NCBI GenBank assembly: GCA_037128175.1
Contig: JBAXWY010000046.1
Location: 1-23,768, forward strand
Origin: Methanothrix sp.
GTDB taxonomy: Archaea > Halobacteriota > Methanosarcinia > Methanotrichales > Methanotrichaceae
Length of the DNA stretch: 23,768 nucleotides
Direction of reading: 5' to 3'
The notes below the pieces were generated by a model. That model was not told the DNA's origin. It was given only the letters and a program-made list of their open reading frames with translations, and searched no databases. This document shows, piece after piece, positions 1 to 20,037 of the stretch. The translations under genes and the position numbers were made by a program. Position 1 is the stretch's first letter; every line of letters starts with the position of its first letter.

Positions 1-759
1 ATAGCTGTTTTGGTTATTATCGCCATGGCCGTAGTAGCCACTGCCGGTGCAGCAAATTACATGTACGAAAAGGCATCGGTCAAGGGCGTTGGATACAAGA
101 ACGTAGAGATGATCATTTCCACCCAGACTGGCTTTAACGGCCAGAAGCTGGTAGAGAAAGAGTCCGGCTCCGGTAACGTCATCACCGAGAGGACTGAGCT
201 GGAAGCCGAGAGGCAGCTCAACAGGACCTACGATCAGATCGAAGGGAATTGCCAATGGCCAACCGGCATTGCATGCCCCATGGACTACATCAACTTCACC
301 AAGGAAGCTGAGTTCGAGTACATGCCCGTCTCATACCAGACCGGCACCTACGACCAGAAGTGGGTAGAGAAGCTGTGCGTACAGAACTACAGAATCGGCG
401 CTGTGCTGACTGAGATGTACACCCATGCTGAGCACCTGCAGAAGACCACCGAGGTCAAGACCAGAGGCTACAGCAAGGTGTCCTACAGCGGTAATCCTAA
501 CGACGGAACTGACGGCAGCTGCCCAGCTTGCTGCACCGGTGTTCTCGAAGCTAACCTGAACAGCAACGTAATCGGTGTTGCACACATCGGCTGGATCTCC
601 CGCGACCCCAACGCTGACAACCAGCTCAAAGGCCGCCATGCTGAGTACGGCAGATCTGTCGAGGACCTGACTGGCGTCTTCTCCATCGAGAAGTTCATCC
701 AGCTCTGGGGCAACTCCACATGCGGCGCAATCAGCGTTGACTGGCTGCCCTGCGTGTAG
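1..759 (+). CDS. Secreted Cys-rich structural protein, copy 1 (5'-truncated by window edge); candidate MspA-type sheath subunit
   Basis: Frame is open from base 1 (IAVLVIIAM...), so it lacks only the MRKL start seen in the other copies. Signal peptide ends ATAGA|ANY, there are 8 Cys, and codons are strongly C-ending. The sheath assignment is inference. Confidence 0.8.
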   Translation: MAVLVIIAMAVVATAGAANYMYEKASVKGVGYKNVEMIISTQTGFNGQKLVEKESGSGNVITERTELEAERQLNRTYDQIEGNCQWPTGIACPMDYINFTKEAEFEYMPVSYQTGTYDQKWVEKLCVQNYRIGAVLTEMYTHAEHLQKTTEVKTRGYSKVSYSGNPNDGTDGSCPACCTGVLEANLNSNVIGVAHIGWISRDPNADNQLKGRHAEYGRSVEDLTGVFSIEKFIQLWGNSTCGAISVDWLPCV

Positions 760-788
760 ATAGATTTAACCTGCAACTCTAGAATCGG

Positions 789-812
789 GCTTCGGGCTCT
801 AAAGCCCGGAGT
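789..812 (+). terminator. 3' hairpin after copy 1
   Basis: GCTTCGGGCT-ctaa-AGCCCGGAGT stem (with G:U pairs), followed by a T-rich tract. Confidence 0.7.
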
Positions 813-883
813 TTCAATTATATTTTTGATGATATTTATCGAAAGCGCTATCAAATGGCTGTATAGTTTTGATTTCTTCGCAT

Positions 884-951
884 TGCCAAAATGCATTTTT
901 CGCTCGATAAATTTATATGTCATTAGCCTAATTGATGCAATCTGTGCCTGA
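884..951 (+). promoter_or_regulatory. Promoter of copy 2
   Basis: TGCCAAAA at 884, TATA-like TTTATAT at 912, and conserved GTGCCTGA at 944 as the probable start site. The same spacing recurs before copies 3-5. Confidence 0.65.
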
Positions 952-1132
952 GAAACGTTTTCAATTGCCCGATCAAAAACCTGGGGCCAGGCGCCTCACG
1001 CCGGAGTGGATAGCATGCAATTCTTCCGTCAGCCGCTATAATGCAAGTTCGCAGTCCAATCGGGGTGATGCATTAAGGATCAATTGCGTTTTAATGTAGC
1101 TCTCGATCCTGATGAAAAGAGGAGGGAAAGAA

Positions 1133-1903
1133 ATGAGAAAACTGATAGCTGTTTTGGTCATTATCGCCATGGCAATAGTCGCCACAGCCGGTGCAGCCAA
1201 CTACATGTACGAGAAGGCATCGGTTAAGGGCGTTGGATACAAGAACGTAGAGATGATCATTTCCACCCAGACTGGCTTTAACGGCCAGAAGCTGGTAGAG
1301 AAAGAGTCCGGCTCCGGTAACGTCATCACCGAGAGGACTGAGCTGGAAGCCGAGAGGCAGCTCAACAGGACCTACGATCAGATCGAAGGGAATTGCCAAT
1401 GGCCAACCGGCATTGCATGCCCCATGGACTACATCAACTTCACCAAGGAAGCTGAGTTCGAGTACATGCCCGTCTCATACCAGACCGGCACCTACGACCA
1501 GAAGTGGGTAGAGAAGCTGTGCGTACAGAACTACAGAATCGGCGCTGTGCTGACTGAGATGTACACCCACGCTGAGCACCTGCAGAAGACCACCGAGGTC
1601 AAGACCAGAGGCTACAGCAAAGTATCTACAGCTACTGGCCCTGACGGCGTAACTGACGGCAGCTGCCCAGCTTGCTGCACCGGTGTTCTCGAGGCTAACC
1701 TGAACAGCAACGTTATCGGTGTTGCACACATCGGCTGGATCTCTAGAGACCCCAACGCTGACAACCAGCTCAAGGGCCGCCATGCTGAGTACGGCAGATC
1801 TGTCGAGGACCTGACTGGCGTCTTCTCCATCGAGAAGTTCATCCAGCTCTGGGGCAACTCCACATGCGGCGCAATCAGCGTTGACTGGCTGCCCTGCGTG
1901 TAG
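1133..1903 (+). CDS. Secreted Cys-rich structural protein, copy 2 (256 aa); candidate MspA-type sheath subunit
   Basis: ATG at 1133 follows GGAGG. The N-terminus MRKLIAVLVIIAMAIVATAGA matches copies 4 and 5, so the ORF-track start at 1112 is an over-extension. Confidence 0.85.
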   Translation: MRKLIAVLVIIAMAIVATAGAANYMYEKASVKGVGYKNVEMIISTQTGFNGQKLVEKESGSGNVITERTELEAERQLNRTYDQIEGNCQWPTGIACPMDYINFTKEAEFEYMPVSYQTGTYDQKWVEKLCVQNYRIGAVLTEMYTHAEHLQKTTEVKTRGYSKVSTATGPDGVTDGSCPACCTGVLEANLNSNVIGVAHIGWISRDPNADNQLKGRHAEYGRSVEDLTGVFSIEKFIQLWGNSTCGAISVDWLPCV

Positions 1904-1933
1904 ATAGGCTGAAATCTGTATAACATCAAAGCC

Positions 1934-1977
1934 GGCTTCGGGCTCTTGGGCCCGGAGTCTAATTTGTTTTTTTTTTT
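1934..1977 (+). terminator. 3' hairpin plus oligo-T after copy 2
   Basis: GGCTTCGGGCT-cttg-GGCCCGGAGTC stem followed by a long T run. Confidence 0.75.
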
Positions 1978-2070
1978 GCTTTAGACTGGGTTTTTATTAT
2001 TAATTGCAAAATATCTAAGATGCTGTGCTTTGCAATTGAAAAAACAAGCACCGGGCGCACATATATTGGA

Positions 2071-2140
2071 TGACAAAATTTTCTTTTTCATGCTCGATAG
2101 GTTTATATGCCATTAACCTAATCAAAACGGTCGTGCCTGA
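2071..2140 (+). promoter_or_regulatory. Promoter of copy 3
   Basis: TGACAAAA at 2071, TTTATAT at 2102, GTGCCTGA at 2133. Confidence 0.65.
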
Positions 2141-2373
2141 AATCTAATCCAAATCATTGGATCAGGCGCCTCACGCTGAATAGGGTGGCATTTGACGCAT
2201 TCGGCCGATGCTTTAAGGCAATGCCGAAACCATGCGGTTTCATCTTTTATGATGGAACGATCCCGTGTCTTAGGGCCAGGATTCTGCGATCCAATCAGAG
2301 TGATGTACTAATGGATCATTTGTTGCTGTCAAAAAGCAGCCTTCGATCCTCATATCGTGGAGGTGGGAAAGAA

Positions 2374-3144
2374 ATGAGAAAATTATTAGCTGTTTTGGTT
2401 ATTATCGCCATGGCCGTAGTAGCCACTGCCGGTGCAGCAAATTACATGTACGAAAAGGCATCGGTCAAGGGCGTTGGATACAAGAACGTAGAGATGATCA
2501 TTTCCACCCAGACTGGCTTTAACGGCCAGAAGCTGGTAGAGAAAGAGTCCGGCTCCGGTAACGTCATCACCGAGAGGACTGAGCTGGAAGCCGAGAGGCA
2601 GCTCAACAGGACCTACGATCAGATCGAAGGGAATTGCCAATGGCCAACCGGCATTGCATGCCCCATGGACTACATCAACTTCACCAAGGAAGCTGAGTTC
2701 GAGTACATGCCCGTCTCATACCAGACCGGCACCTACGACCAGAAGTGGGTAGAGAAGCTGTGCGTACAGAACTACAGAATCGGCGCTGTGCTGACTGAGA
2801 TGTACACCCACGCTGAGCACCTGCAGAAGACCACCGAGGTCAAGACCAGAGGCTACAGCAAAGTATCTACAGCTACTGGCCCTGACGGCGTAACTGACGG
2901 CAGCTGCCCAGCTTGCTGCACCGGTGTTCTCGAGGCTAACCTGAACAGCAACGTTATCGGTGTTGCACACATCGGCTGGATCTCTAGAGACCCCAACGCT
3001 GACAACCAGCTCAAGGGCCGCCATGCTGAGTACGGCAGATCTGTCGAGGACCTGACTGGCGTCTTCTCCATCGAGAAGTTCATCCAGCTCTGGGGCAACT
3101 CCACATGCGGCGCAATCAGCGTTGACTGGCTGCCCTGCGTGTAG
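2374..3144 (+). CDS. Secreted Cys-rich structural protein, copy 3 (256 aa); mature protein identical to copy 2
   Basis: ATG at 2374 follows GGAGGTG. The upstream extension to 2185 is non-coding leader. Confidence 0.85.
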   Translation: MRKLLAVLVIIAMAVVATAGAANYMYEKASVKGVGYKNVEMIISTQTGFNGQKLVEKESGSGNVITERTELEAERQLNRTYDQIEGNCQWPTGIACPMDYINFTKEAEFEYMPVSYQTGTYDQKWVEKLCVQNYRIGAVLTEMYTHAEHLQKTTEVKTRGYSKVSTATGPDGVTDGSCPACCTGVLEANLNSNVIGVAHIGWISRDPNADNQLKGRHAEYGRSVEDLTGVFSIEKFIQLWGNSTCGAISVDWLPCV

Positions 3145-3174
3145 ATAGGCTGAAATCTGTATAATATTAAAGCC

Positions 3175-3222
3175 GGCTTCGGGCTCTTAAAGCCCGGAGT
3201 TCAAATTTTATATTCTTGTTTT
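3175..3222 (+). terminator. 3' hairpin after copy 3
   Basis: GCTTCGGGCT...AGCCCGGAGT stem followed by a T-rich tract. Confidence 0.7.
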
Positions 3223-3230
3223 CGTCGCGT

Positions 3231-3298
3231 TGCCAAAAAGCCGCTCTCCTTCGTTAAATTTATCTGCTATTAGCTTGATTAGTAGAACTTGTGCCTGA
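3231..3298 (+). promoter_or_regulatory. Promoter of copy 4
   Basis: TGCCAAAA at 3231, TTTATCT at 3259, GTGCCTGA at 3291. Confidence 0.6.
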
Positions 3299-3377
3299 GA
3301 AACTTTTTCAATTGCCCTATCAAAAACATGGGGTCAGGCGTCTCACGTCGAAGTGAGTAGCAAGAGGAGGGAAATAG

Positions 3378-4226
3378 ATGAGAAAACTGATAGCTGTTTT
3401 GGTTATTATCGCCATGACCATAGTAGCCACAGCCGGTGCAGCCAACTACATGTACGAAAAGGCATCGGTCAAAGGCGTTGGATACAAGAACGTAGAGATG
3501 ATCATTTCTACCCAGACCGGCTTTAACGGCCAGAAGCTGGTCGAGAAAGAGTCCGGCTCGGGTAACGTCATCACCGAGCGAACTGAGCTTGAGGCGGAGA
3601 GGCAGCTAGAACGATATAAACATAGGACTACACAGGCGGTGCCAAAAGCGCCTACAAACGGATATGCATCTCTCGGTGATTGGGTTCCAATTGGATATCC
3701 ATATAGGGGTGGCTTGGATGGAGGATGCGATTGGCCGACCGGCACTGCCTGTCCCATGGACTACATCAACTTCACCAAGGAAGCTGAGTTCGAGTACATG
3801 CCCGTCTCATACCAGACCGGCACCTACGACCAGAAGTGGGTAGAGAAGCTGTGCGTACAGAACTACAGAATCGGCGCTGTGCTGACTGAGATGTACACCC
3901 ACGCTGAGCACCTGCAGAAGACCACCGAGGTCAAGACCAGGGGATACGGTAGCATTAACTTTGTTGAGGGCGACGTTATTGATAGCTGCCCCGCTTGCTG
4001 CACCGGTGTTCTCGAAGCTAACCTGAACAGCAACGTTATCGGTGTGGCCCACATCGGCTGGATCTCCAGAGATCCCAACGCTGACAACCAGCTCAAAGGC
4101 CGCCATGCTGAATACGGGCGATCGGTCGAGGACCTGACTGGCGTCTTCTCCATCGAGAAGTTCATCCAGCTCTGGGGCAACTCCACCTGCGGCGCAATCA
4201 GCGTTGACTGGCTGCCCTGCGTGTAG
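3378..4226 (+). CDS. Secreted Cys-rich structural protein, copy 4 (282 aa, long loop-1 variant)
   Basis: GGAGG precedes the ATG. Same scaffold as copies 1-3, with loop 1 longer by 29 aa and loop 2 shorter by 3 aa. Confidence 0.85.
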   Translation: MRKLIAVLVIIAMTIVATAGAANYMYEKASVKGVGYKNVEMIISTQTGFNGQKLVEKESGSGNVITERTELEAERQLERYKHRTTQAVPKAPTNGYASLGDWVPIGYPYRGGLDGGCDWPTGTACPMDYINFTKEAEFEYMPVSYQTGTYDQKWVEKLCVQNYRIGAVLTEMYTHAEHLQKTTEVKTRGYGSINFVEGDVIDSCPACCTGVLEANLNSNVIGVAHIGWISRDPNADNQLKGRHAEYGRSVEDLTGVFSIEKFIQLWGNSTCGAISVDWLPCV

Positions 4227-4246
4227 ATCGGCTAATATTAAAGCTT

Positions 4247-4293
4247 GGCTTCGGGCTCTTAAGCCCGGAGTTCTAATTTTATATTCTTGTTTT
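4247..4293 (+). terminator. 3' hairpin after copy 4
   Basis: GCTTCGGGCT-ctta-AGCCCGGAGT stem followed by a T-rich tract. Confidence 0.7.
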
Positions 4294-4301
4294 CGTCGCG
4301 T

Positions 4302-4369
4302 TGCCAACAAGTAGTTGTCATTCGTTAACTTTATCTGCCCTTAGCCTGATTAGTAGGACTTGTGCATGA
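4302..4369 (+). promoter_or_regulatory. Promoter of copy 5
   Basis: TGCCAACA at 4302, TTTATCT at 4330, GTGCATGA at 4362. Confidence 0.6.
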
Positions 4370-4466
4370 GAATTTTTTTTCAATTGCCAGATCAAAAACA
4401 GGTGCATTAGGGGTCAATTGCTTTTTAATGCAGCTCTCGATCCTTATTAAATGAGGTGGGAAATAA

Positions 4467-5315
4467 ATGAGAAAACTGATAGCTGTTTTGGTTACTATCG
4501 CCATTGCCATAGTAGCCACAGCCGGTGCAGCCAACTACATGTACGAAAAGGCATCGGTCAAAGGCGTTGGATACAAGAACGTAGAGATGATCATTTCTAC
4601 CCAGACCGGCTTTAACGGCCAGAAGCTGGTCGAGAAAGAGTCCGGCTCGGGTAACGTCATCACCGAGCGAACTGAGCTTGAGGCGGAGAGGCAGCTAGAA
4701 CGATATAAACATAGGACTACACAGGCGGTGCCAAAAGCGCCTACAAACGGATATGCATCTCTCGGTGATTGGGTTCCAATTGGATATCCATATAGGGGTG
4801 GCTTGGATGGAGGATGCGATTGGCCGACCGGCACTGCCTGTCCCATGGACTACATCAACTTCACCAAGGAAGCTGAGTTCGAGTACATGCCCGTCTCATA
4901 CCAGACCGGCACCTACGACCAGAAGTGGGTAGAGAAGCTGTGCGTACAGAACTACAGAATCGGCGCTGTGCTGACTGAGATGTACACCCACGCTGAGCAC
5001 CTGCAGAAGACCACCGAGGTCAAGACCAGGGGATACGGTAGCATTAACTTTGTTGAGGGCGACGTTATTGATAGCTGCCCCGCTTGCTGCACCGGTGTTC
5101 TCGAAGCTAACCTGAACAGCAACGTTATCGGTGTGGCCCACATCGGCTGGATCTCCAGAGATCCCAACGCTGACAACCAGCTCAAAGGCCGCCATGCTGA
5201 ATACGGGCGATCGGTCGAGGACCTGACTGGCGTCTTCTCCATCGAGAAGTTCATCCAGCTCTGGGGCAACTCCACCTGCGGCGCTATCAGTGTTGATTGG
5301 CTCCCCTGCGTGTAA
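4467..5315 (+). CDS. Secreted Cys-rich structural protein, copy 5 (282 aa); mature protein identical to copy 4
   Basis: GAGGTG precedes the ATG. Differs from copy 4 in signal-peptide codons, the last synonymous codons and the stop codon. Confidence 0.85.
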   Translation: MRKLIAVLVTIAIAIVATAGAANYMYEKASVKGVGYKNVEMIISTQTGFNGQKLVEKESGSGNVITERTELEAERQLERYKHRTTQAVPKAPTNGYASLGDWVPIGYPYRGGLDGGCDWPTGTACPMDYINFTKEAEFEYMPVSYQTGTYDQKWVEKLCVQNYRIGAVLTEMYTHAEHLQKTTEVKTRGYGSINFVEGDVIDSCPACCTGVLEANLNSNVIGVAHIGWISRDPNADNQLKGRHAEYGRSVEDLTGVFSIEKFIQLWGNSTCGAISVDWLPCV

Positions 5316-5350
5316 ATAGATCAATTACAACTTTTTTAGGAATAGCGTCT

Positions 5351-5379
5351 CGGATTTTCTTTCCTGGAAGCAAAATCCG
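5351..5379 (+). terminator. Hairpin after copy 5 (unrelated to the hairpin of copies 1-4)
   Basis: CGGATTTT...AAAATCCG inverted repeat; a T6 run lies just upstream. Confidence 0.45.
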
Positions 5380-5442
5380 GCTGGATGTAAGATACTTCTG
5401 TGCCGCCTTGAGCGCGGAATGACTTTTTCCCGTGCAAATAAC

Positions 5443-5460
5443 AGATAGATTTATATCAAA
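5443..5460 (+). promoter_or_regulatory. Putative TATA box for the 5569 gene
   Basis: GATAGA-TTTATAT at 5450 resembles the CGATA(A/G)n-TTTATAT boxes of copies 2 and 3. An RBS-like GGGGTGA precedes the ATG. Confidence 0.5.
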
Positions 5461-5568
5461 TAAAAACGTCAGAGTATAACTGTAGTTAAAAGATCGCAAT
5501 TTAAGCGATAACGCATCTACATAAAGGGATAAACAATTTGTTGCATTAACATCGGGGGTGAATGTAGC

Positions 5569-6363
5569 ATGAAGGGAGTAGTAGGAATAGTAGTACTTGC
5601 AATTGCCCTTATGGGGCTATGTGGTACTGTGATGGCCAATCCGCCCATAGTTCCGCCCGTACAGTATGAGCAGTTTTGTGAAGCACATAAGGTATCCGGA
5701 ACCGGAATTATCGATGTCAGCACATCGGTAATCGACAAAAAGATCGCACTCGAGTATTTCAACACCATGAATGGCGACGGAGATCTCGAGCTGGACCAGG
5801 AGACCGCGTACTCACAGAATGCCGACAAACTGAGGAGGAATGTGTCCTCTGTAAATGGTGGAAATGAATCCGCTCTGAACCTCATCCAGACCACGAAGTT
5901 GACTTATGCGGGCGAGACGCCCTTGACCGGTGGCAAACTCCTCAACTCCAAGGCCTTCTACGGAGGCATTGGTGCCAATGTGCAGGAGCTTTTCTCTGTA
6001 AATGAGATGGAACAGGATCAGACCGCGTTCTTTGCCTCAACCACGCCCTATGAGACACCATACGGCGCACCTGAGGATCTGCCTGGCCTGCTCAAGAATG
6101 CCGGCAGAGATACCGCTGCAGTCGAGCAGCTCATGACGGCCAGCAATGGTGTATATGTTCCGTCCCATCTGGTTGGTCTCGAGACCAAGAACTCCTTCAA
6201 TGGTACCTGGGGCACCGACGCAACCTGGCATAAGATATTCTACAAGGACATCAAGGCTCACGAGATGTTCACAGGTGTGTTCGAAGCCGAGAAGACCATT
6301 AAGTTCCATGAGAACCCGGTGCCCGATAGAATCCGTGCACCTTGTGAAGGCATAGACTGCTAG
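5569..6363 (+). CDS. Secreted protein, distant paralog of the array protein (candidate minor or accessory subunit)
   Basis: Signal peptide MKGVVGIVVLAIALMGLCGTVMA. Motifs KVSGTG, GIGANVQELF and EMFTGVFEAEKTIKF, and a C-terminal PCEGIDC, are collinear with the array protein. A T run follows the stop. Confidence 0.8.
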   Translation: MKGVVGIVVLAIALMGLCGTVMANPPIVPPVQYEQFCEAHKVSGTGIIDVSTSVIDKKIALEYFNTMNGDGDLELDQETAYSQNADKLRRNVSSVNGGNESALNLIQTTKLTYAGETPLTGGKLLNSKAFYGGIGANVQELFSVNEMEQDQTAFFASTTPYETPYGAPEDLPGLLKNAGRDTAAVEQLMTASNGVYVPSHLVGLETKNSFNGTWGTDATWHKIFYKDIKAHEMFTGVFEAEKTIKFHENPVPDRIRAPCEGIDC

Positions 6364-6422
6364 GCCGAGAAAGCCTGCAGTTTTTTTTCTTTTTTTTTTA
6401 TAGCAATATTCGGGGGGTTCGC

Positions 6423-7592
6423 ATGAAAAGACAAATGATTTGTATAATGATAATATTCATCCTGACGGCAGCCCCGGTAGTGGCCACAGTTGAGGACGCG
6501 GGCATGGCATCTGGTGATGTTTCGAGCAGCCCCTGGACGGGTTCCACATCGCCAACGGTGCCTACATTTTTGCCCAGCCCCTGTTCCGGTGACTATGGTA
6601 GCCTCACCGTTGCCATCGGCCTTACCGGGCCCGAGTCAGAGCCTGATAAATTCTATACAACTCCAGGCAAACCACTGGACTTCATGGTTACGGTAAGTAA
6701 TGATGGTAGAACGGAGGTGGAGGCACAGGTCTGCGTCAAGCCGGAAGGCTGTCCTTTTGAATGGTTTAGCTGGACGACCACTCCCTTGACCATTCCGGCA
6801 GGAGTCTCGCGTTCTGTGGCCCTGCAAGTTTTTCCGGATACAAATGCTGTAGCCGGAGAGTACAGATTCGCGGTGGAGGCCTCGGCCAAATGCCGCAGCT
6901 CTGAGCCACGCCCTGCAAAATTCAAGGTGCAAGCATTCGATTACGCCTCAGAGACCTCTGTGAGCGGCTCTGGCCAATTTCAGATCAATAAAGACCTCAG
7001 ATCCATGAACTCGGGGATCAAGTCCACCAAAAACGTGCTGTTTTCCGGTAGCGTGGATGCTCTGGTGAAGAACGAATACCTGGTGGACAAGGCATTGGGC
7101 AAGAATGCCAATTTCCAGGAACAGGATGCAGTTGACAACTACAATGCCGTCTCTCTTGGGGATGCACTTGTCGGAACGGAGACCTTCAAGAGTTCTGCGA
7201 TCTTCGGAGGGGTGGGGGCCAAAGTCCGGGAAAGTTATGATGTGCAGCAGATGGAGTTCAAGAACCAGGATTTCACATTGCACCAGACGGGATCTCTAAA
7301 GAAGACTGCAGAGTTCAAGACGGCTGATAACTTCACAGGATATTATCTGATAGATGCTAAGCAGGTAATTCCCGGCCAGAAGAACCTGAAGGAGTTTGAG
7401 GAGTATTTCGGATCCTTTGAAATAAACCGGAGAATACTCTTCCGGGATGCCGCAAAATCCAAGACGCCATGCCTGGAAGGAGACTGTCTGAAAGCACCGA
7501 GCATTAAAGCACCGGCACCAAGCTTTACCAGCCCCTGCTTAAGCGGCTCATGCAACGACTTCGTGAACCGGCTGAATTCATTCGGCAAGTGA
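6423..7592 (+). CDS. Secreted protein with an N-terminal Ig-like domain and a C-terminal domain related to the array protein
   Basis: Signal peptide, then a Ser/Pro/Thr linker, then a CARDB/NEW3-like pattern (PGKPLDFMVTVSNDG...LTIPAGVSRSVALQV...AGEYRFAVEA). These are followed by SVSGSG, GVGAKVRESY, EEYFGSFEINRRILF and two PCxxxxC motifs. Confidence 0.8.
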   Translation: MKRQMICIMIIFILTAAPVVATVEDAGMASGDVSSSPWTGSTSPTVPTFLPSPCSGDYGSLTVAIGLTGPESEPDKFYTTPGKPLDFMVTVSNDGRTEVEAQVCVKPEGCPFEWFSWTTTPLTIPAGVSRSVALQVFPDTNAVAGEYRFAVEASAKCRSSEPRPAKFKVQAFDYASETSVSGSGQFQINKDLRSMNSGIKSTKNVLFSGSVDALVKNEYLVDKALGKNANFQEQDAVDNYNAVSLGDALVGTETFKSSAIFGGVGAKVRESYDVQQMEFKNQDFTLHQTGSLKKTAEFKTADNFTGYYLIDAKQVIPGQKNLKEFEEYFGSFEINRRILFRDAAKSKTPCLEGDCLKAPSIKAPAPSFTSPCLSGSCNDFVNRLNSFGK

Positions 7593-7762
7593 GCATGAGC
7601 GTTCTTTTTTTTGGTATTTTCCATTCATTCAGGCAGCCAAAACCTTAAAATAGCCTCCAGAGAAACTGTACCCGGGTGCTAGGGTATCAGGAGAGCGAAG
7701 GCCTGGACTTTTAAAAATGGGCCCGATTCAGGGGCAAACCAGGCGAAAGGAGGTTGTGTGGA

Positions 7763-8491
7763 TTGAAGAGAGAATTGATTGTTTTAGCGTTTATTGTCAT
7801 GGCAATAGTTGGCATGGCAGGTGCTGCCAATTACATGTACGAGAAATCGTCTGTAAAAGGGGTGGGGTATAGAAGCCTGGAGATTGTCATCTCTACACAA
7901 AACGGCTTTAATGGGCAAAAGCTGGTGGAGAAACAGTCCGGCTCAGGAAATGTGATAACTTCCAGAATTGAGCTTGAAGCTGAACGGCAACCTCTGGGCC
8001 TGTCATGTGAATGGCCGACGGGGTCGGATCCCATGGACTACATCAACTTCACCTCGGAGCAGGAGCTGGAGTACATGCCCGTCTCATATCAGACCGGCAC
8101 TTATGACCAGAAATGGGTGGATAAGCTCTGCGTGCAGAACTACAAGATAGGCGCTGTGCTTACTGAGATGTACACTCATGCTGAGCATCTGCAAAAGACC
8201 ACCGAGATCAAGACCAGGGGATACAACAGCAATATAGGTGGCGAAACTACCGTACCCGCTTGCTGCACAGGCGTTCTCGAAGCTAACCTGAACAGCAACG
8301 TCATCGGTGTTGCCCACATCGGATGGATCTCCAGAGATCCCAACGCAGACCCGCAGCTTAAGGGTCGCCATGCTGAGTATGGTCGATCGGTTGAGGACCT
8401 CACGGGTGTCTTCTCCATTGAGAAGTTCATCCAGCTCTGGGGCAACTCCACCTGCGGTGCCGTCAGCGTTGATTGGCTACCCTGCGTGTAA
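7763..8491 (+). CDS. Secreted Cys-rich structural protein, divergent copy 6 (about 242 aa, short loops, 6 Cys)
   Basis: TTG at 7763 is suitably spaced from GGAGG (7749-7753); the alternative start is TTG at 7754. The C-terminal half is nearly identical to copies 1-5. Confidence 0.85.
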   Translation: MKRELIVLAFIVMAIVGMAGAANYMYEKSSVKGVGYRSLEIVISTQNGFNGQKLVEKQSGSGNVITSRIELEAERQPLGLSCEWPTGSDPMDYINFTSEQELEYMPVSYQTGTYDQKWVDKLCVQNYKIGAVLTEMYTHAEHLQKTTEIKTRGYNSNIGGETTVPACCTGVLEANLNSNVIGVAHIGWISRDPNADPQLKGRHAEYGRSVEDLTGVFSIEKFIQLWGNSTCGAVSVDWLPCV

Positions 8492-8505
8492 ATATTAAAT
8501 TGAAA

Positions 8506-8547
8506 AAATAGCGCCGCAGGAAAATTCGGCGCTTATTTCCTTTTTTA
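8506..8547 (+). terminator. Hairpin plus T run after copy 6
   Basis: AAATAGCGCCG...CGGCGCTTATTT followed by T6. Confidence 0.6.
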
Positions 8548-8668
8548 TAACGGAATATCAATCCAACTATCCTACTCATCATTCTACAGGACAAAACTGC
8601 CAGGGAGCTAGTATTTAAGGGAATAGGTGGATATAACAGAGAGACGAGTCAAAAATAGGTGAATTTAA

Positions 8669-8821
8669 ATGAGCAAGAAAAAAGGTGCTAAAGGAATGCC
8701 CAACGACGGGCCCGGCAAACACGATCCTGCGAAACCACAGAAGAATAAGTCAGACGCGCCACTCTTCAATAAAATGAAGGGCGGAATAACGAATGAGCGA
8801 CCTCGAAAGACTCGGATCTGA
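8669..8821 (+). CDS. Small basic hypothetical protein (50 aa), absent from the ORF track
   Basis: AGGTGA RBS at 8657-8662, ATG at 8669, TGA at 8819. Translation: MSKKKGAKGMPNDGPGKHDPAKPQKNKSDAPLFNKMKGGITNERPRKTRI. Confidence 0.6.
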   Translation: MSKKKGAKGMPNDGPGKHDPAKPQKNKSDAPLFNKMKGGITNERPRKTRI

Positions 8822-8895
8822 GTGCGGCTCGGGCAGAAGGCCCGGCCACGTGTTCGTGTGCAGGGGGCGGGAGGCCAGGTGGGGCCGTGTTTGGA

Positions 8896-10014
8896 TTAAT
8901 CCGGTTGCCCGTTATTGAGCAAGAGCAGGCTTATGGATATCCCGGAGAAGATGGTCTGGATTCCCAAGATGGAAAATATCATCGCCATCATGGCGTTAGA
9001 TGCTGCATCTAGCGTTCCGAAGCCTGTGGCCCCCCAGCTGAGCATGACTTTCAGGCCGAGAAGGCCGCCTATGGCAAGCAAAACCATGCCGATGATAAGC
9101 TCCTTTTCCAGGGAGTGGTAGCTGATCATCTTTTTTATTCTTCCTGGGCGAGAGAGGCCGTAGGATGCCCCGAAAGCCTCAAAATAAAGTCCCGCCAAGA
9201 GCATCTGGTAGCCTATGATTGCCAGCAGGCCGCCCAGGATCAGGGAATGCATCCTTGATCCACCCTGCAGATACACTCCCGCGGACAGGGTCAGCCCCAA
9301 AAAAAAGGCTAAAAGTCCGGGAACGAGAAGAAACGGCACAGGCCGGTAGAGCATCATGAAACGTACATGTCTCCAGCCATCTGTAAAGGAGTGAAGCTTG
9401 GAAAATCCTTTGCGTGGGTAGTAGGTGATCGGAACTTCTGCAACTCTCAGATCTTTGCAGACCGCCTCAATGAGCATCTCCGAGGCGAACTCCATCCCTC
9501 CCGACCGAAGATTCAGTTTTTTCAGGGCATCTTTGCTAATGGCCCGAAGGCCACAGTGGGCATCAGAAATGCGACTGGAAAATAGTGTGTTCAAAATCCA
9601 GGTGAGAACCGGATTTCCAATATAACGATGAAGTGCAGGCATAGCCCCCGGAAGAACCACTCCCTTGAGCCGCGACCCAATAACCATGTCATAATTGCCG
9701 CTTTGCAGGATGGCGATCATATCCGGAATGGCTTTGGGATCATAGGTCAGATCACCGTCCATGAGAACGATGTATTCCCCTTCCGCCTGCTCGAATCCGG
9801 CCAGGTAAGCATTTCCGTATCCCAGCTTTTGGGGCTTGATAACTTTTGCCCCGCATGATTCAGCAATTGCGGCCGTCTCGTCGCTCGAGCTGTCTGCCAC
9901 CAGAATCTCTCCCAAAAGGTCCATCTCTCGGAAGACCTGCTGGGCTATTTGGATGCATTCACGAATCGTCTCTGCCTCGTTTCTGGTAGGGATGATCAGG
10001 CTTATTGGGGGCAC
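8896..10014 (-). CDS. Glycosyltransferase family 2 (dolichol-phosphate glycosyltransferase-like) with C-terminal transmembrane helices
   Basis: ISLIIPTRNE, ADSSSDET, GYGNA, MDGDLTY (DxD), DMVIGSR, DAHCGLRA, EVPITYYPRKGFSKL, and about four hydrophobic C-terminal segments. Confidence 0.9.
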   Translation of the reverse strand: MPPISLIIPTRNEAETIRECIQIAQQVFREMDLLGEILVADSSSDETAAIAESCGAKVIKPQKLGYGNAYLAGFEQAEGEYIVLMDGDLTYDPKAIPDMIAILQSGNYDMVIGSRLKGVVLPGAMPALHRYIGNPVLTWILNTLFSSRISDAHCGLRAISKDALKKLNLRSGGMEFASEMLIEAVCKDLRVAEVPITYYPRKGFSKLHSFTDGWRHVRFMMLYRPVPFLLVPGLLAFFLGLTLSAGVYLQGGSRMHSLILGGLLAIIGYQMLLAGLYFEAFGASYGLSRPGRIKKMISYHSLEKELIIGMVLLAIGGLLGLKVMLSWGATGFGTLDAASNAMMAMIFSILGIQTIFSGISISLLLLNNGQPD

Positions 10015-10059
10015 ATCTCTTAGCGTTGTGGTTTTATCTGTTAAGCTTTTCCTTCAATT

Positions 10060-10296
10060 TTAAAGGGTCTCCGGTTCGACCTCGTGCTTGAAAGACAGCC
10101 TGACCTTGGCCCGGAACAGCACTATCTTGCCCTCGGCAAGCTTTGTGTCCATCTCCACCACTTCCGCCATCCTCATGTTTGTCAGCTTCCCTTCTGCGTG
10201 GTCTATGGCATTGCGAACTGCCTCTTCCCAGTCTTTGCTTGAGGTCCCCACCAGTTCGATGAAATTATAGACGCTGCTGCCAATTGCGCTGTCCAT
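10060..10296 (-). CDS. Dodecin family flavin-binding protein
   Basis: VYNFIELVGTSSKDWEEAVRNAI...EVVEMD...FRAKVRLSF is the dodecin pattern. The start is ATG 10296 or 10305, not 10554. Confidence 0.85.
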   Translation of the reverse strand: MDSAIGSSVYNFIELVGTSSKDWEEAVRNAIDHAEGKLTNMRMAEVVEMDTKLAEGKIVLFRAKVRLSFKHEVEPETL

Positions 10297-10408
10297 ATTG
10301 TCCATATGTTTAATAATGGTCGTTTCTCCTTGATATATTTTTTCAGGATCGACCATTTGGTTTAAACGGCATACAGTCATTGATCCGTCGCGAAAGAGGT
10401 AGCAACTG

Positions 10409-11380
10409 ATGAACCGTGACGAAGTCCAAAAGTACATAGAAGAGCGATATCCAGGCTTCACGGTAAAGAGCAAAAAGACAATCCTCTGCCGAAACTCCCG
10501 GATCTTTATTCTGGATCTCTGCAAGGGGCAAATCCTGGACAAAATCGTGGTCAAGATCTCTCGTAACTATCAACCTCGCGAAGTCGATCTCGAGTTTGCC
10601 AACTTATCACGTTTTTACTATGGCTGCAAAGATGAGGCCGTTTCCTCTCCACGGCCCCTATTTGTAGATGCAGAGAGTGGAATCCTGGCCATGAACTACG
10701 TAGAGGGCGTAAATCTTGCCCATATGCTGCATGAGATCAGGCCGGTAAGCCTGCAATACCTAAGCAGCGCCGCCGATCTTTCTGGAATTGCTCTGGCAAA
10801 ATTTCATACACTCTTTCGCCGGGGGGAGAATGAGCCCGTCACCATCGACACCAACGCGAAGGAGGATGACATCAACCGGTTCCTCTCCGAAAGCCAGGAG
10901 CTGATGGACCAGTGTAATCTCAAAACCATGGTTACGCCGTTCTTCGATTTCACATCCTGGAACATCATCATATCGAAAAAAAGCATGCGGCTTTATCTCA
11001 TCGACTTTCCCAGGCTTGATTATGTCTGTACTCCTCATCTGGATTTAGCCCGGTTCAGATTCGGTCTGGAACTGGTCAAGCAGTTTCCACCTGCCAAGTT
11101 CTTTGGACTAAATCGTTGGGATGTAGATTCTCTCTACGATCGGTTTTTGAACGGCTATTGTCGCGAGATGCATGTTGCTTTGAGCCGGGACGACCTCTGG
11201 CTCATTGCTCGCGCCAGGAAGGCCAACATAAGACGGTCCCAGGATCTGGCGCGCAAAGGCCGGTGCGGCTGGCAGCCCAAGCTGGAGCAGGCATATCTTC
11301 AGACATTCAGCCGAGAGTGGCTGGATCAAGGAGATGTCTTTTCTAGGTGGCCGGGAATGGGCCGTGCGGAAAAAGCCTGA
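10409..11380 (+). CDS. Protein-kinase-like fold phosphotransferase (APH/Kdo-kinase-like), substrate unknown
   Basis: IVVK lysine, EFANL helix C, PRPL, LAMNYVEG hinge, LAKFH, DFTSWN catalytic loop, LIDF metal-binding motif. Confidence 0.7.
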   Translation: MNRDEVQKYIEERYPGFTVKSKKTILCRNSRIFILDLCKGQILDKIVVKISRNYQPREVDLEFANLSRFYYGCKDEAVSSPRPLFVDAESGILAMNYVEGVNLAHMLHEIRPVSLQYLSSAADLSGIALAKFHTLFRRGENEPVTIDTNAKEDDINRFLSESQELMDQCNLKTMVTPFFDFTSWNIIISKKSMRLYLIDFPRLDYVCTPHLDLARFRFGLELVKQFPPAKFFGLNRWDVDSLYDRFLNGYCREMHVALSRDDLWLIARARKANIRRSQDLARKGRCGWQPKLEQAYLQTFSREWLDQGDVFSRWPGMGRAEKA

Positions 11381-11392
11381 AAAAAGGAGATT

Positions 11393-11995
11393 TTATTCGG
11401 TTTTCTCCTCTTTTGGCACATCAGGTTCTTCCTTTGGTCCCTCTGGCTCTTCCTTCTTTGCTTGCTTCTTGGGTCCTTTGCCCATAGCCACCAGGGACGC
11501 CTTGGCCTGAATTCTGGCCAGTGGGTAGTCGTCTTTAGCCACTTTTTCCAGGGCCACAATGGCACGGCTGTCCTTCAGCTCTCCTACGATCCAGGCGGCT
11601 CCTGCGCGCACATCTTTATCTGCATCGGAGAGTGCCTGGATTATGCGTTCTGAAACCTGTTTTCCATAGGCGGAGATGGCCACCATGGCATTGCTCTTGA
11701 CCAGATACTCGTCGTCCTTGAGGGCTTCGATGAGGGCCTCCAGAGACTCAGAGATCTCGCGCTTGGAGAGGAGAATAATGGCGTTGGAGCGCACCAGCAT
11801 GTGCTTGTCCTTGGTAGCTGCGATCAGCTTCTCTGTAGACCAGCTGGGATCAGGTAGCACCGCGGGCATGGAAGGCTCCTGTGCACCACAGGTAGGACAG
11901 GCTTCCTCAACCATAGAACGGGTTACTATGGGGGCGGCCTTGTCTTCGGTTATCTTCTCTTCTGTCGATATTTCGTCTTTATTTTCAACTTCCAT
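11393..11995 (-). CDS. HEAT (PBS-lyase-like) repeat protein
   Basis: Repeats of the form LIEALKDDEYLVKSNA, IIQALSDADKDVRAGAAWIVGE and LEKVAKDDYPLARIQA, plus a charged tail. Confidence 0.85.
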   Translation of the reverse strand: MEVENKDEISTEEKITEDKAAPIVTRSMVEEACPTCGAQEPSMPAVLPDPSWSTEKLIAATKDKHMLVRSNAIILLSKREISESLEALIEALKDDEYLVKSNAMVAISAYGKQVSERIIQALSDADKDVRAGAAWIVGELKDSRAIVALEKVAKDDYPLARIQAKASLVAMGKGPKKQAKKEEPEGPKEEPDVPKEEKTE

Positions 11996-12011
11996 ACGCT
12001 TCCTTTCGCTT

Positions 12012-12599
12012 CTATTCTACTTCAGCTTTTCCTAAGGCGAATGCTTTCTTATTCGCTTCCTGGAACCTTTGCGGCACCACAAGGGAAAGAGCCTGCAAAA
12101 TTAGCTCCTCGGTGAGTGGAATATACCCGGCAAGGGCGCCCAGCATTACCACATTCATAGCCTGCGCGTTGCCAGCAATCTCTGCCAGATTCGTGGCGTC
12201 CATGGCGATAACCTTGCAGCATCGTGCTTTCAGGGGGGCGAGGATCTCTTGCATCGGCGGATACCGGGCCTTGCCGCAGGTAACGGTAGAAGGCAGAACC
12301 GGTCTGGTATTGACCAGCACGACACCCGTGGGCGAGAGGAAGTGGGCGAAGCGCAGGGCTTCCGCTGGTTCTAATGCCACCAGCACATCCGCTCCGCCTG
12401 AGGCGATCATGGGAGAAAAGCGGCATCCAATGCGAGTGTGATTGATCACGCTGCCGCCCCTCTGGGCCATGCCGTGCGTCTCAGCTCCGCATACTGGCTT
12501 TCCTGCCATTACCGCCGCCCTGCCGATCACATCCGAGATCAGTATGACACCCTGGCCGCCCACACCTACTATCACCATATCGCATTCAGAAGTCCTCAT
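12012..12599 (-). CDS. iorB: Indolepyruvate:ferredoxin oxidoreductase subunit beta
   Basis: GVGGQG, ETHGMAQRGGSV, LEPAEALR, NVVMLGAL. The ATG at 12599 overlaps the iorA stop (ATGA). Confidence 0.93.
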   Translation of the reverse strand: MRTSECDMVIVGVGGQGVILISDVIGRAAVMAGKPVCGAETHGMAQRGGSVINHTRIGCRFSPMIASGGADVLVALEPAEALRFAHFLSPTGVVLVNTRPVLPSTVTCGKARYPPMQEILAPLKARCCKVIAMDATNLAEIAGNAQAMNVVMLGALAGYIPLTEELILQALSLVVPQRFQEANKKAFALGKAEVE

Positions 12600-14380
12600 C
12601 TTGCCACCTCCCGGATGGCAGAAGTTGAGCAGATCGCGGCGCATACCCCGCATCCGGTGCATTGTGCATTTATCCTGGCCTTATCATTCTCGAATTCGAT
12701 GGCCGGGCAGCTGAAGTCGAGGCAGATCTTGCATCCAATGCAGTCCTCCCCCACTTGGAAGGAGCGACGGCGTATGCCGCTGCGGCGAGCTTTGATGACA
12801 CAGGGCTGCCGGGCGATGATTACGGACAGGCCCGGATAATCTTTGGCCCTCTGAAAGCTCTCAAGTGTCTCATCCAGGTGGTAGGGATCGACCGTCTCCA
12901 CCAGTCCCGCGCCCAAAGCTTTGGCCAGAGCTTCGATTGATACCGAGGAAGTTACCTCTCCGCTGGCCGTCATGCCCGTGCCTGGATTGGGCTGATGTCC
13001 GGTCATGGCTGTCGTGGAGTTGTCGAGAATAGTCACGGTGATCCTGGCCTTGTTGTAGGCGGCATTGAGAAGGCCGGTCATGCCTCCATGCAGAAAGGTT
13101 GAGTCGCCAAGACTACAGCATATGCCTTCCTTCTCCCCGCCGAAGCGAATGCCGCTGGCCAGAGTGATGCTAGCTCCCATGCACAGGCACGTGTCCACAG
13201 TTCCCATGCCGATCGCCATGGTGTAGCAGCCGATATCGCTGGGGTAGATGGCATTCTTGCCGAAGACCTTTCGCATGGCGTAATAGGTGGCCCGGTGGCT
13301 GCAGCCTGCGCATAGCGAGGGGGGCCGGGGCGGCAGACAGCTCACATCCGCATTCTTCACCGCCACCCGCTCCGCCTTGCCAAGCATGCGGGCTATGGCA
13401 TTTCTCACCTGCAAATAGTCCAGCTCGCCCTCGCGGGGGATGGATCCCTCCTTCCCCAGGATCTCCACATGGGGATTGACCTTTAGGGCTAACATCTTCA
13501 CCTGCTCTTCTACCACCGGCTCCAGTTCTTCTATTACCATTACCCGGGAGACGTGCATAAGCATGCGGCTGATCAATTTTTTGGGAAGGGGATAGGCTCC
13601 GATGCATAGGAATGAGAGTTCTTCATCCAGATCGAAAATAGCTTCCTTCGCGTACAGTCCCGCGATTCCCGAGGCGATGATGCCTACATTGCCATGCAGA
13701 TCGAGCCTGTTCCAGGGCGCGCTTTCCAGCTCCTCCTCCATGGCGGCCTGTTTGGCCAAAAGCTCGCTATGAAGCGGCCGGGCGTTGCTAGGCAGGGCCA
13801 CTCGTCGCGCAGGATTCTTGATGAATTGGCCTGGTCCAGGAGCGGACTTTTCCTGGCCCATCTCTACGTCCTCTCTGGCGTGAGAGACGCGCGTAGTGGG
13901 CCTGAGCATGACCGGGATATTGAATTTCTCGGAGAGCTCAAAGGCAAAAACGGTCATCTCTTTTGCCTCTCCGGGATTCGCGGGGTCCAGGCAGGGTATG
14001 CCGGCAAACTGGGCATAACGGCGCGAGTCCTGTTCATTTTGCGAGGAATGGCAATAGGGATCATCGGCACAGATCACCACCAGTCCCGCGCCCACGCCCA
14101 GGTACGCCAGGGTCATGAAGGGATCTGCGGCCACATTCAAACCCACGTGCTTCATGGTGGCCGCGGCGCGACAGCCGGTCCAGGAGGCTCCTGCTGCCAC
14201 CTCCAGAGCAACTTTCTCGTTTACGGACCATTCCACATGCGGCGGCCTCTCACTTTTGAGTTCGACCAGCGTTTCTATGATCTCCGAGGAGGGTGTGCCG
14301 GGATATCCGGCGACAAGCCCCACTCCTGCTTCCAGGAGGCCTCTGGCAATTGCTGCGTTTCCGAGAAGATATTCTCTCAC
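12596..14380 (-). CDS. iorA: Indolepyruvate:ferredoxin oxidoreductase subunit alpha
   Basis: GYPGTPSSE, NEKVALE, MKHVGLNVAAD, RPPSLCAGCSHR, SDIGCY, the TPP motif GDSTF...LDNSTTAMTGHQ, and a C-terminal 2x[4Fe-4S] domain. Confidence 0.95.
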   Translation of the reverse strand: MREYLLGNAAIARGLLEAGVGLVAGYPGTPSSEIIETLVELKSERPPHVEWSVNEKVALEVAAGASWTGCRAAATMKHVGLNVAADPFMTLAYLGVGAGLVVICADDPYCHSSQNEQDSRRYAQFAGIPCLDPANPGEAKEMTVFAFELSEKFNIPVMLRPTTRVSHAREDVEMGQEKSAPGPGQFIKNPARRVALPSNARPLHSELLAKQAAMEEELESAPWNRLDLHGNVGIIASGIAGLYAKEAIFDLDEELSFLCIGAYPLPKKLISRMLMHVSRVMVIEELEPVVEEQVKMLALKVNPHVEILGKEGSIPREGELDYLQVRNAIARMLGKAERVAVKNADVSCLPPRPPSLCAGCSHRATYYAMRKVFGKNAIYPSDIGCYTMAIGMGTVDTCLCMGASITLASGIRFGGEKEGICCSLGDSTFLHGGMTGLLNAAYNKARITVTILDNSTTAMTGHQPNPGTGMTASGEVTSSVSIEALAKALGAGLVETVDPYHLDETLESFQRAKDYPGLSVIIARQPCVIKARRSGIRRRSFQVGEDCIGCKICLDFSCPAIEFENDKARINAQCTGCGVCAAICSTSAIREVAR

Positions 14381-14478
14381 AAATAACCATCCCTTTTATT
14401 GGTAGAATATGGCCTCTTCACTCTGATAACCGTTTGGATACAAATCTAATTAAGCCAACATCGCTCGTATCTACTGCA

Positions 14479-15519
14479 ATGATAAAGTGGCAAGAAGATT
14501 CCGTGGGATCGATTTACAATTACCTCTCGCCTGGCTGCCGCATCTGCCGCCAGGGGGCGGGCCTGGTGCTCTTCGTCACCGGCAATTGTCCGCGTAGCTG
14601 TTTCTACTGTCCGCTGTCCGAGGAGCGGAGGGGCCGCGATCTGGTCTTTGCCGATGAAATGCCGGTGCAGGAAATAGCTGACATTCTGCGGGAGGCTTCT
14701 GCCATCGATGCTCTGGGCACAGGAATCACGGGCGGTGAGCCGCTTTTGAAATTGGACTATGTCCTGGAGTGCATCCGGGCTTTGAAGAATGCGCGCGGGC
14801 AGCAGCACCACATTCACCTTTATACCGGCCTTCTTCCTGGTCGCGCCGTCTTAGAAAGGCTAAAGCAGGCCGGCCTGGACGAGATCCGCTTTCATCCACC
14901 CGTCTCCGAATGGTCTCATCCCGTCGGGCTCAAGGAGACCCTTCTGCAGGCTATAGACCTGGGCCTGATAGCAGGCGTAGAAATACCCTCCATTCGGCCC
15001 GCTCCCGCCATCATCGAGGCGGTAAGGGATGCGGGTGCTTTTTTGAACGTAAACGAGCTGGAGTTTTCTGAGACCAACTATGCCGGCCTCGCCGCTGCCG
15101 GCTATTTGCCGCAGGATCTGGGCTCGGGAGCAATAGGAAGCGAAGAGGTCGCCCGGGAGCATTTCCTGCAAGATGACATAAAAGCCCACTTTTGCCCTTC
15201 TCGCTTCAAGGATGCGGTGCAGCTCAAAGAGCGATTCCTCCGCCGGGCGAATCGAACGGCGCGGCCTTTTGATTATGTGAGCGAGGAGGGCACCATAATT
15301 CACGGCATAATTGAGGGCGATCTTCAGGCAGCTTTGCAGATTCTTGTTGATCTGGCGGTTCCCGAAGATATGTACTCCTGCCGGGAGGGAAGGATAGATA
15401 TCGCCGCCCCTATCCTGGAGGACATAACCAAAGAGCTAAAAAGCGTCTTATGTATTCTCAGTATAATTGAGAAGTATCCCTTTGAGGACGGACTGGTCGT
15501 AGAGAGAATACCTTTATAA
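14479..15519 (+). CDS. Archaeal radical SAM protein (COG2108-like)
   Basis: GCRICRQG, CPRSCFYC (CxxxCxxC), GITGGEP, HIHLYT, LDEIRFHP, NELEFSETN. The start is likely ATG 14479 because the longer ORF overlaps iorA. Confidence 0.88.
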   Translation: MIKWQEDSVGSIYNYLSPGCRICRQGAGLVLFVTGNCPRSCFYCPLSEERRGRDLVFADEMPVQEIADILREASAIDALGTGITGGEPLLKLDYVLECIRALKNARGQQHHIHLYTGLLPGRAVLERLKQAGLDEIRFHPPVSEWSHPVGLKETLLQAIDLGLIAGVEIPSIRPAPAIIEAVRDAGAFLNVNELEFSETNYAGLAAAGYLPQDLGSGAIGSEEVAREHFLQDDIKAHFCPSRFKDAVQLKERFLRRANRTARPFDYVSEEGTIIHGIIEGDLQAALQILVDLAVPEDMYSCREGRIDIAAPILEDITKELKSVLCILSIIEKYPFEDGLVVERIPL

Positions 15520-15557
15520 TCCTTAAATTCATTGCTTGAGGGCGGTGATTTTGCCGG

Positions 15558-15860
15558 ATGGAAAGCGCTGAAGAACGAATCCAGGAGAGGCTCAGAAATT
15601 ATCTTAAACGGGACGGAATAGGAATTCGAAAGGCTGTCTTAAAGCTGTTTTTGAGCGATGGAGCTTACACCACTGAGGACGTCTTTACCTACCTCGCGAA
15701 GGAGGGTTTTGACGTTAGCTATCGGGGAGTTTCGGCCATGGTGGGGCTCATGAACACTCGCCTGGGCATCCTGAGCATTGACGTTTCCGGGGACCATAAC
15801 GTCTATTCCCTCAAGGGAGATCACAAGGGTGTTGTGAGGTCTGTTCTGGAAAATTATTGA
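15558..15860 (+). CDS. DUF2551-like small winged-helix protein
   Basis: RD..GIRKAVLKLFL...YTTEDV...VSYRGVSAMVGLMNTRLGIL resembles this methanogen family (from memory). RBS GGTGA is present. Confidence 0.75.
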   Translation: MESAEERIQERLRNYLKRDGIGIRKAVLKLFLSDGAYTTEDVFTYLAKEGFDVSYRGVSAMVGLMNTRLGILSIDVSGDHNVYSLKGDHKGVVRSVLENY

Positions 15861-15865
15861 AAAGA

Positions 15866-20028: not shown

Positions 20029-20037
20029 GTGGACAAG

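Follow-up and report, generated by a model that had tools for sequence, protein, structure and literature searches.

We analysed a 23,768-nucleotide stretch of DNA from Methanothrix sp. (GenBank assembly GCA_037128175.1, contig JBAXWY010000046.1), hereafter the window, which is an entire contig (C46) and one of 98 in the genome. Positions 1-8491 are filled by eight plus-strand genes for secreted-type proteins, as seen in the open reading frame (ORF) listing and in an alignment of the six close copies among them. With a probability of about 0.75, this segment is the Methanothrix gene cluster for the SH sheath proteins, equivalent to the module Mthe_0668, Mthe_0667 and, presumably, Mthe_0666 of M. 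thermoacetophila. By sequence comparison with that module, its first gene is amplified to five tandem copies (c1 to c5) plus one divergent copy (c6), here called the main type. The other two genes, r1 and r2, encode a second and a third type.

Medvedeva, Borrel and Gribaldo (ISME J 2024, PMC11576556) name Mthe_0668 and Mthe_0667 as the sheath-forming 'SH' proteins with the highest transcription in M. thermoacetophila, and SH proteins were found there as structural homologs of the sheath subunit of M. hungatei that was verified by cryo-electron tomography (cryoET). According to the same source, all Methanotrichales have SH proteins, with as many as 40 copies in a genome, their genes lie in one cluster in which neighbours can be up to 100% identical, their core consists of two six-stranded antiparallel sheets with variable outward 'cap' domains, and SH-like proteins are encoded by viruses of sheathed archaea. 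Apart from the SH genes, it states, there is no conserved genomic context. The SH family, its gene clustering and its viral copies were already published in 2024 (PMC11576556), and the locus is not new as a discovery. In the literature searched outside that paper, Mthe_0668 was not found named.

The assignment was made through G031, a single-contig 1.88-Mb genome of another genus in which the three genes recur in the same order and encode proteins of 243 (main type), 271 (r1) and 379 amino acids (r2). Identity to the G031 orthologs is 79% for the main type (c2), 56% for r1 and 55% for r2. Exact look-up of the first two proteins of the G031 module returned ABK14458.1 and ABK14457.1 of M. thermoacetophila. 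Their locus tags were deduced by gene count and accession spacing. The ninth gene downstream in G031 encodes a 720-amino-acid S-layer protein with PF07752 twice and a PGF-CTERM, and Mthe_0677 is an 'S-layer-related duplication domain' gene in Table 3 of PMC10470525. Because the nine-gene count reaches Mthe_0677 and the accession spacing runs to ABK14853.1, which is Mthe_1069, we take the main type as Mthe_0668 and r1 as Mthe_0667.

The surroundings of the two modules also agree. Contig C54 of the same genome ends in genes for a 350-amino-acid protein, S6e, geranylgeranyl reductase, a transporter and ilvD, which mirror the genes upstream of the G031 main-type gene; the two loci are therefore syntenic. 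The final 55 nucleotides of C54 are identical to the opening 55 of the window, and the contig terminates in the first 22 codons of a main-type gene, so c1 is most likely a whole gene that the assembly has split. An earlier reading of this DNA, made from its letters without database searches (the sequence-only reading), had seen here a sheath locus or a related polymer with major and minor subunits, and had proposed a synteny comparison. The same gene order and neighbourhood in G031 make these genes syntenic orthologs of named SH proteins, which supports that proposal.

The window proteins share several of the published SH features. Read by eye from the translations, the N-termini of all eight show a basic n-region, a hydrophobic stretch and an A-x-A-type site (e.g., AGA/ANYMYEK), and the same inspection found no second hydrophobic segment or known C-terminal anchor in any of them; r1 may carry a lipid anchor. 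Eight co-oriented signal-peptide genes without another anchor, as first described, were thus borne out. Variable parts lie where a cap inserted in the core would be placed: two hypervariable loops (HV1 and HV2) between predicted hairpins of the main type, helices in the corresponding position of r1 and an immunoglobulin (Ig)-like domain in r2. The cluster holds six main-type copies. There are no differences between mature c2 and c3 or between mature c4 and c5, and c1 differs from c2 by seven residues, all inside HV2. Protein identity of c6 to c2 is about 77-82%. The four mature variants described by the sequence-only reading (c1; c2=c3; c4=c5; c6) were therefore exact. DNA identity from copy to copy is 88-98%, flanks included, which puts the tandem array far beyond chance.

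An AlphaFold2 run for c2 with a 41-row alignment gave an all-beta model of long antiparallel strands (34-44, 52-75, 98-110, 125-133, 138-161, 184-209 and 217-240) with a mean predicted local distance difference test score (pLDDT) of 67.9 and a predicted template-modelling score (pTM) of 0.64. Its low-confidence stretches, 77-95 and 163-181, coincide with the two variable loops, and HV1 lies below a pLDDT of 50. The r1 model (pLDDT 61.1) consists of six strands, each 20-25 residues long, and a pair of helices that separates the second hairpin from the third. Both models predict three long hairpins with inserts between them, in keeping with the published SH description. Sequence searches of the PDB with single sequences and profiles found no relative, the ESM Atlas, which contains the sequence but no model of it, gave no usable match, and Foldseek against BFVD gave nothing at E <= 0.001. 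Pfam and NCBIfam hold no family for the main type or r1; the only match was a sub-threshold one to NEW3 for r2.

Both types were found throughout the family. The main type was present in every one of the 61 genomes sampled and in all 16 genera, with the same counts for r1. Across 301 genomes of the phylum, each type was found in 13: the genome of the window, the eight further family members in the sample and 4 of the 292 others. Among the matches listed, r1-type and main-type genes stand no more than about 2.5 kb apart in at least 34 of the 60 genomes other than that of the window, from 10 genera. Several complete genomes show the arrangement of the window, with a number of main copies, r1, an r2-sized gap and a divergent main copy. 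The main-r1 pair recurs across at least 10 genera; this conserved pairing is not described in the main text of PMC11576556, whose supplements may list it. In a collection clustered at 90% identity, 2564 of 3156 candidates were relatives of the main type at E <= 0.001, and the names shown were all 'hypothetical protein' from Methanothrix; among 50%-identity representatives there were 204. The family is therefore very populous and narrow.

Viruses carry the main type as well. Five IMG/VR contigs (L010-L014) encode full-length main-type proteins, 61-86% identical. A neighbour scan that took in 33 of the 66 ORFs found viral-family matches beside the SH gene in four of the five contigs, including DNA polymerase, helicase, major head protein, head morphogenesis, baseplate and tail proteins. 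The viral copies retain the signal peptide and the scaffold, in agreement with the viral SH-like proteins reported in PMC11576556, and three have a much shorter HV1.

Further main-type sequences were seen elsewhere in the genome. A lone seventh full-length copy on contig C15, about 79-84% identical to c2, adjoins a 1095-amino-acid ORF that by eye resembles a restriction-methylase fusion and shows an NPPY-type motif; the pair is at 3884-4978 and 5462-8749 of the 28000-37000 segment. Short secreted proteins, about 165 amino acids long, at C19:14797-15252 (-) and C44:11374-11811 (+) match the C-terminal two thirds of the main type with 49-55% identity. These short forms look cap-less, and proteins like them are frequent in the set of 50%-identity representatives.

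Variation in the main type is concentrated in the two loops. Among the 120 best main-type relatives, HV1 appeared as 110 distinct sequences of 21-66 residues and HV2 as 102 distinct sequences of 12-31 residues, while most non-loop scaffold positions were conserved at 95% or more and all eight cysteines at 94% or more. Clustering at 70% identity gave 52 HV1 types and 52 HV2 types. More than one HV2 partner type was found for 15 of the 52 HV1 types, and eight pairs of HV1 types showed all four combinations. This observation indicates that HV1 and HV2 reassort, and it lends support to the 'swappable loops' of the sequence-only reading. Over the last 74 codons, c2 and c6 differ by 25 synonymous and two non-synonymous codons, c2 and c4 by 11 and none, and c4 and c5 by four synonymous ones; judged from such codon comparisons, strong purifying selection acts on the main-type scaffold. 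In the main text of PMC11576556 we found no mention of two reassorting hypervariable loops on a near-invariant scaffold; its supplements may list such loops.

We tentatively raise the possibility that the main-type subunit (Mthe_0668 type) serves as a display scaffold whose two loops would face outward, with the tandem copies acting as a recombination-shuffled store of cassettes that would give the filament a mosaic or changeable surface. Viruses that target the sheath, and that themselves encode full-length copies, would exert the pressure together with attached episymbionts. In its logic the arrangement would resemble bacterial pilin or surface-antigen variation. If true, it would be a surface-variation system on an archaeal sheath.

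Codon usage sets two of the copies apart. The effective number of codons (Nc) is 37.8 for c2 and 38.7 for c3, at the 0.4-0.6 percentile of 1605 proxy ORFs, versus 47.4 for c4, 48.7 for c5, 50.2 for r1, 54.8 for r2 and 55.3 for c6, with a genome median of 51.5. Extreme codon bias is limited to c2 and c3 among the seven genes measured (all except c1), so the strong bias ascribed to the whole locus by the sequence-only reading holds for these two and fails for c4, c5, r1, r2 and c6. This limitation to two copies was not found in the text of PMC11576556. The upstream spacers of c2, c4 and c5 each carry their own AAATTTAT-type A/T box and a GGAGG/GGTGG ribosome-binding site. Contigs from RNA libraries (metatranscriptomes; four runs of four studies) cover r1, r2 and c6. 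In these runs, the conserved half of c6 had a summed word depth of 612-16098 and the nearby glycosyltransferase family 2 (GT2) gene one of 1-13, depths that pool paralogs and strains and cannot rank genes.

The second and third types are related to each other (BLASTP 4e-7; hhalign probability 95.6% over the C-terminal core of r2). The hhalign alignment of r2 with the main type covers the signal peptide only. Of the 'two remote paralogs' in the sequence-only reading, the kinship between r1 and r2 therefore stood, while their sequence link to the main family is weak. Residues 80-154 of r2 match PF10633 (NEW3/Ig-like) weakly, below the curated cut-off. Relatives of r1 fall into 615 clusters and those of r2 into 310, all unnamed. 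In the signal region of r1 (window 5569-5640), Cys18 is invariant in 26 of 26 aligned r1-type proteins, and the UniRef name of the M. thermoacetophila r1 ortholog is 'Lipoprotein'. From its sequence, r1 might be lipid-anchored and act as a membrane-tethered partner of the main subunit. Elsewhere in the genome, r1-type cores were seen within long open frames of 639 and 1148 amino acids, at C10:68268-68882 (-) and C1:141024-141344 (+). They may be the 'sheath adhesins' of PMC11576556, which have additional domains.

Together, these features suggest how the products may assemble. Sec would export each protein and the signal peptide would be removed, as read from the sequence. The mature proteins of about 26-40 kDa (c2 26.0, c4 28.9, r1 26.3 and r2 39.7 kDa) would then fold into a core of long antiparallel beta-hairpins, as predicted by the AlphaFold2 models of moderate confidence. 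Strand-to-strand joining of neighbours may produce a continuous cross-beta ring, and rings would stack into hoops and hoops into the tube that encloses the filament. We infer this step from the cryoET work on M. hungatei and from the published AlphaFold2 ring, which could be built from Mthe_0668 and Mthe_0667 (PMC11576556), and the sheath location and polymerisation of the window proteins are inferred with it. The variable parts in the hairpin connections (the main-type loops HV1 and HV2, the r1 helices and the Ig-like domain of r2) would correspond to the published outward 'cap', and the conserved cysteines probably cross-link subunits or hoops. Because extreme codon bias was measured in c2 and c3, c1 to c3 are probably the bulk subunit, with c4/c5, r1, r2 and c6 as co-assembling variants.

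Several results weigh against placing these proteins in the sheath. No experiment does so, and the reassignment of 2024 rests on modelling and transcript levels. The only tandem mass spectrometry (MS/MS) of purified Methanothrix sheaths found Mthe_1069 (PMC6242892, PMC11576556). The sheath glycopeptide of M. concilii is Rha-Asn-Glu-Gly-Ser (PMC2952790), and the NEGS motif is present in none of the eight window proteins and, among relatives, only in 8 of 120 r2-type proteins. As to the fold, confidence in the c2 and r1 models is moderate, Foldseek against the PDB gave nothing at E <= 0.001 (best 0.033, TM about 0.1), and a wide VIA fold search peaked at a Z of 6.7, within the stated noise. Between r1 and the main type, hhalign aligned 105 colinear columns with a probability of only 10%.

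MspA of M. thermophila PT was reportedly recovered from purified sheaths by Dueholm et al. in 2015 and called a functional amyloid. The sequence-only reading had this protein in mind for the locus, with which it shares only the theme of secreted, beta-rich, cysteine-containing proteins in the same genus. MspA is ABK14853.1, or Mthe_1069 (PMC6242892, PMC10470525). In G031 it was located by accession spacing as a 575-amino-acid secreted protein upstream of ABK14854.1, and exact look-up of that protein returned 'ABK14853.1, hypothetical protein Mthe_1069'. It lies about 450 kb from the SH module. BLASTP of MspA against c2, the comparison that the sequence-only reading had suggested, showed no similarity (best E 0.21), and the genome of the window, which is 99.8% complete, has no MspA match at E <= 0.01. 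MspA is 60.9 kDa, against the 26-40 kDa of the mature window proteins. With no BLASTP similarity, no genome match and a different size, the MspA identity is refuted, and we give it practically no probability. MspA has itself been called 'likely misidentified' as the main sheath protein, or a secondary component (PMC11576556). The locus was sensed correctly as sheath-related and wrongly tied to MspA, an interpretation that was half right.

The proteins could instead build another extracellular layer, such as the thin granular layer of the wall, which lies on the membrane, the spacer plugs or a matrix between sheath and cell, with the hoops made of something else. Secreted, cysteine-rich, beta-rich, conserved and multi-copy proteins fit any abundant envelope polymer, proteins of the window type are not reported in the sheath MS/MS of PMC6242892, and the composition of the plugs is unknown according to PMC11576556. 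However, the published candidate for the granular layer is the 720-amino-acid S-layer-domain PGF-CTERM protein 11 kb from the G031 cluster, and the published structural match of SH proteins is to the cryoET-verified M. hungatei hoop subunit (PMC11576556), which makes another layer unlikely. Soluble or surface-attached binding proteins (adhesins, lectins, or receptors or decoys for viruses and epibionts) with ligand-binding loops and no polymer would account for two hypervariable loops on an invariant scaffold, the Ig-like domain of r2 and the full-length copies on virus contigs. A confident match to an enzyme or binding family, which the sequence-only reading had named as evidence against itself, was looked for in Pfam and NCBIfam and not found, nor was there a clear fold match. 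Scaffold conservation over 16 genera, the codon bias of c2 and c3 and the amplification fit a bulk structural role better, and we consider binding proteins improbable. A viral origin of the cluster, as a prophage remnant or a superinfection-exclusion cassette, was suggested by the full-length copies on the five IMG/VR contigs and the viral hallmark genes beside four of them. It is very improbable and was rejected because the host context is conserved: S6e, geranylgeranyl reductase and ilvD flank the locus in two genera, the cluster is in 61 of 61 genomes, and no virus-like gene was seen by eye among the window ORFs, for which no PHROGs scan was made. The SH sheath cluster is the interpretation that we retain.

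The coordinates of the genes and loops are collected in Table 1. The six close paralogs hold 8, 8, 8, 8, 8 and 6 cysteines, within the 6-8 stated by the sequence-only reading, a range that r1 with four and r2 with nine fall outside.

Table 1. Features of the SH cluster, given in window positions
Feature	Position	Strand	Remarks
c1, main-type SH subunit (Mthe_0668 type)	1-759	+	5' end cut by contig end; 97% identical to c2
c2, main-type SH subunit, 256 aa, mature about 26 kDa, 8 Cys	1133-1903	+	
HV1 loop of c2, residues 77-98, conserved C88 and C96 at its end	1361-1426	+	
HV2 loop of c2, residues 162-177, then conserved C-P-A-C-C motif	1616-1663	+	
c3, main-type SH subunit, mature protein identical to c2	2374-3144	+	
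c4, main-type SH subunit, HV1 26 residues longer, HV2 different	3378-4226	+	
c5, main-type SH subunit, mature protein identical to c4	4467-5315	+	
r1, second SH type, ortholog of ABK14457.1	5569-6363	+	56% identical to G031 protein adjoining main-type gene
r2, third type: N-terminal Ig-like (NEW3-like) domain, predicted r1-like beta core, Cys-rich tail	6423-7592	+	
c6, divergent main-type SH subunit, 6 Cys, short loops	7763-8491	+	Start TTG at 7763 (or 7754)

Beyond the cluster, an AglJ-like GT2 gene with C-terminal membrane segments lies at 8896-10014 (-) and matches TIGR04182 at 6e-49, below the cut-off. It adjoins the cluster in the window, as first noted, but it is not a conserved neighbour. 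The GT2 gene lies within 3 kb of the SH cluster in two of the five other genomes checked, and in the other three it is 160-180 kb away or only distantly related. The GT2 was therefore rejected as a part of the SH system; the adjacency is retained only in the closest relatives. A dodecin-domain ORF follows at 10060-10554 (-; PF07311, 3.5e-20). Its long N-terminal extension is probably spurious and overlaps a weak APH-like kinase ORF on the opposite strand, at 10409-11380 (+). Between 19001 and 20000, G+C falls to 0.36 versus about 0.52 elsewhere, in the spacer before a 1229-amino-acid tetratricopeptide repeat (TPR)-like ORF (20029-23718).

Methanothrix is a major methane producer, and the surface of its sheath meets syntrophic partners, epibionts and viruses. 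Which protein builds this sheath is disputed between MspA, found by mass spectrometry, and the SH proteins, found by modelling. The window adds to the SH side, as a genome without an MspA match keeps an amplified, strongly conserved SH cluster in which two copies have extreme codon bias. The two recombining loops mark where the surface varies and provide concrete targets for proteomics, antibodies and cryoET fitting.

Among known systems, the SH proteins of Methanotrichales, such as Mthe_0668 and Mthe_0667 of M. thermoacetophila, have in common with the window proteins that near-identical copies stand in tandem, that outward parts vary, and that an Ig-like variant and copies in viruses exist (PMC11576556). 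The window differs in number, with 5+1 copies of the Mthe_0668-type gene versus one in G031. The SH protein of M. hungatei (also 'MspA'; Mhun_2271, WP_011449234.1; PMC6242892, PMC10593813) is likewise secreted, beta-rich and cysteine-bearing, and several paralogs occur in each genome. This subunit is said to assemble into cross-beta rings that stack as hoops, and it served as the template for finding the Methanothrix SH proteins (PMC11576556). In contrast to this likeness, no sequence-level link to it was seen, and the window profiles matched only the 4 of 292 non-family genomes of the phylum given above. MspA of Methanothrix is also secreted and of the same genus, but it has 575 amino acids versus about 235-260 mature residues, is encoded at another locus and lacks sequence similarity. 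Bacterial functional amyloids such as curli CsgA and Fap (see PMC6242892) are Sec-exported subunits too, and like them the window proteins would polymerise outside the cell by beta-strand stacking. Unlike in these amyloids, no imperfect short repeats were seen in the window proteins and no dedicated secretion or nucleator genes in the cluster. In place of a beta-solenoid, the AlphaFold2 secondary structure predicts a core of long antiparallel hairpins.

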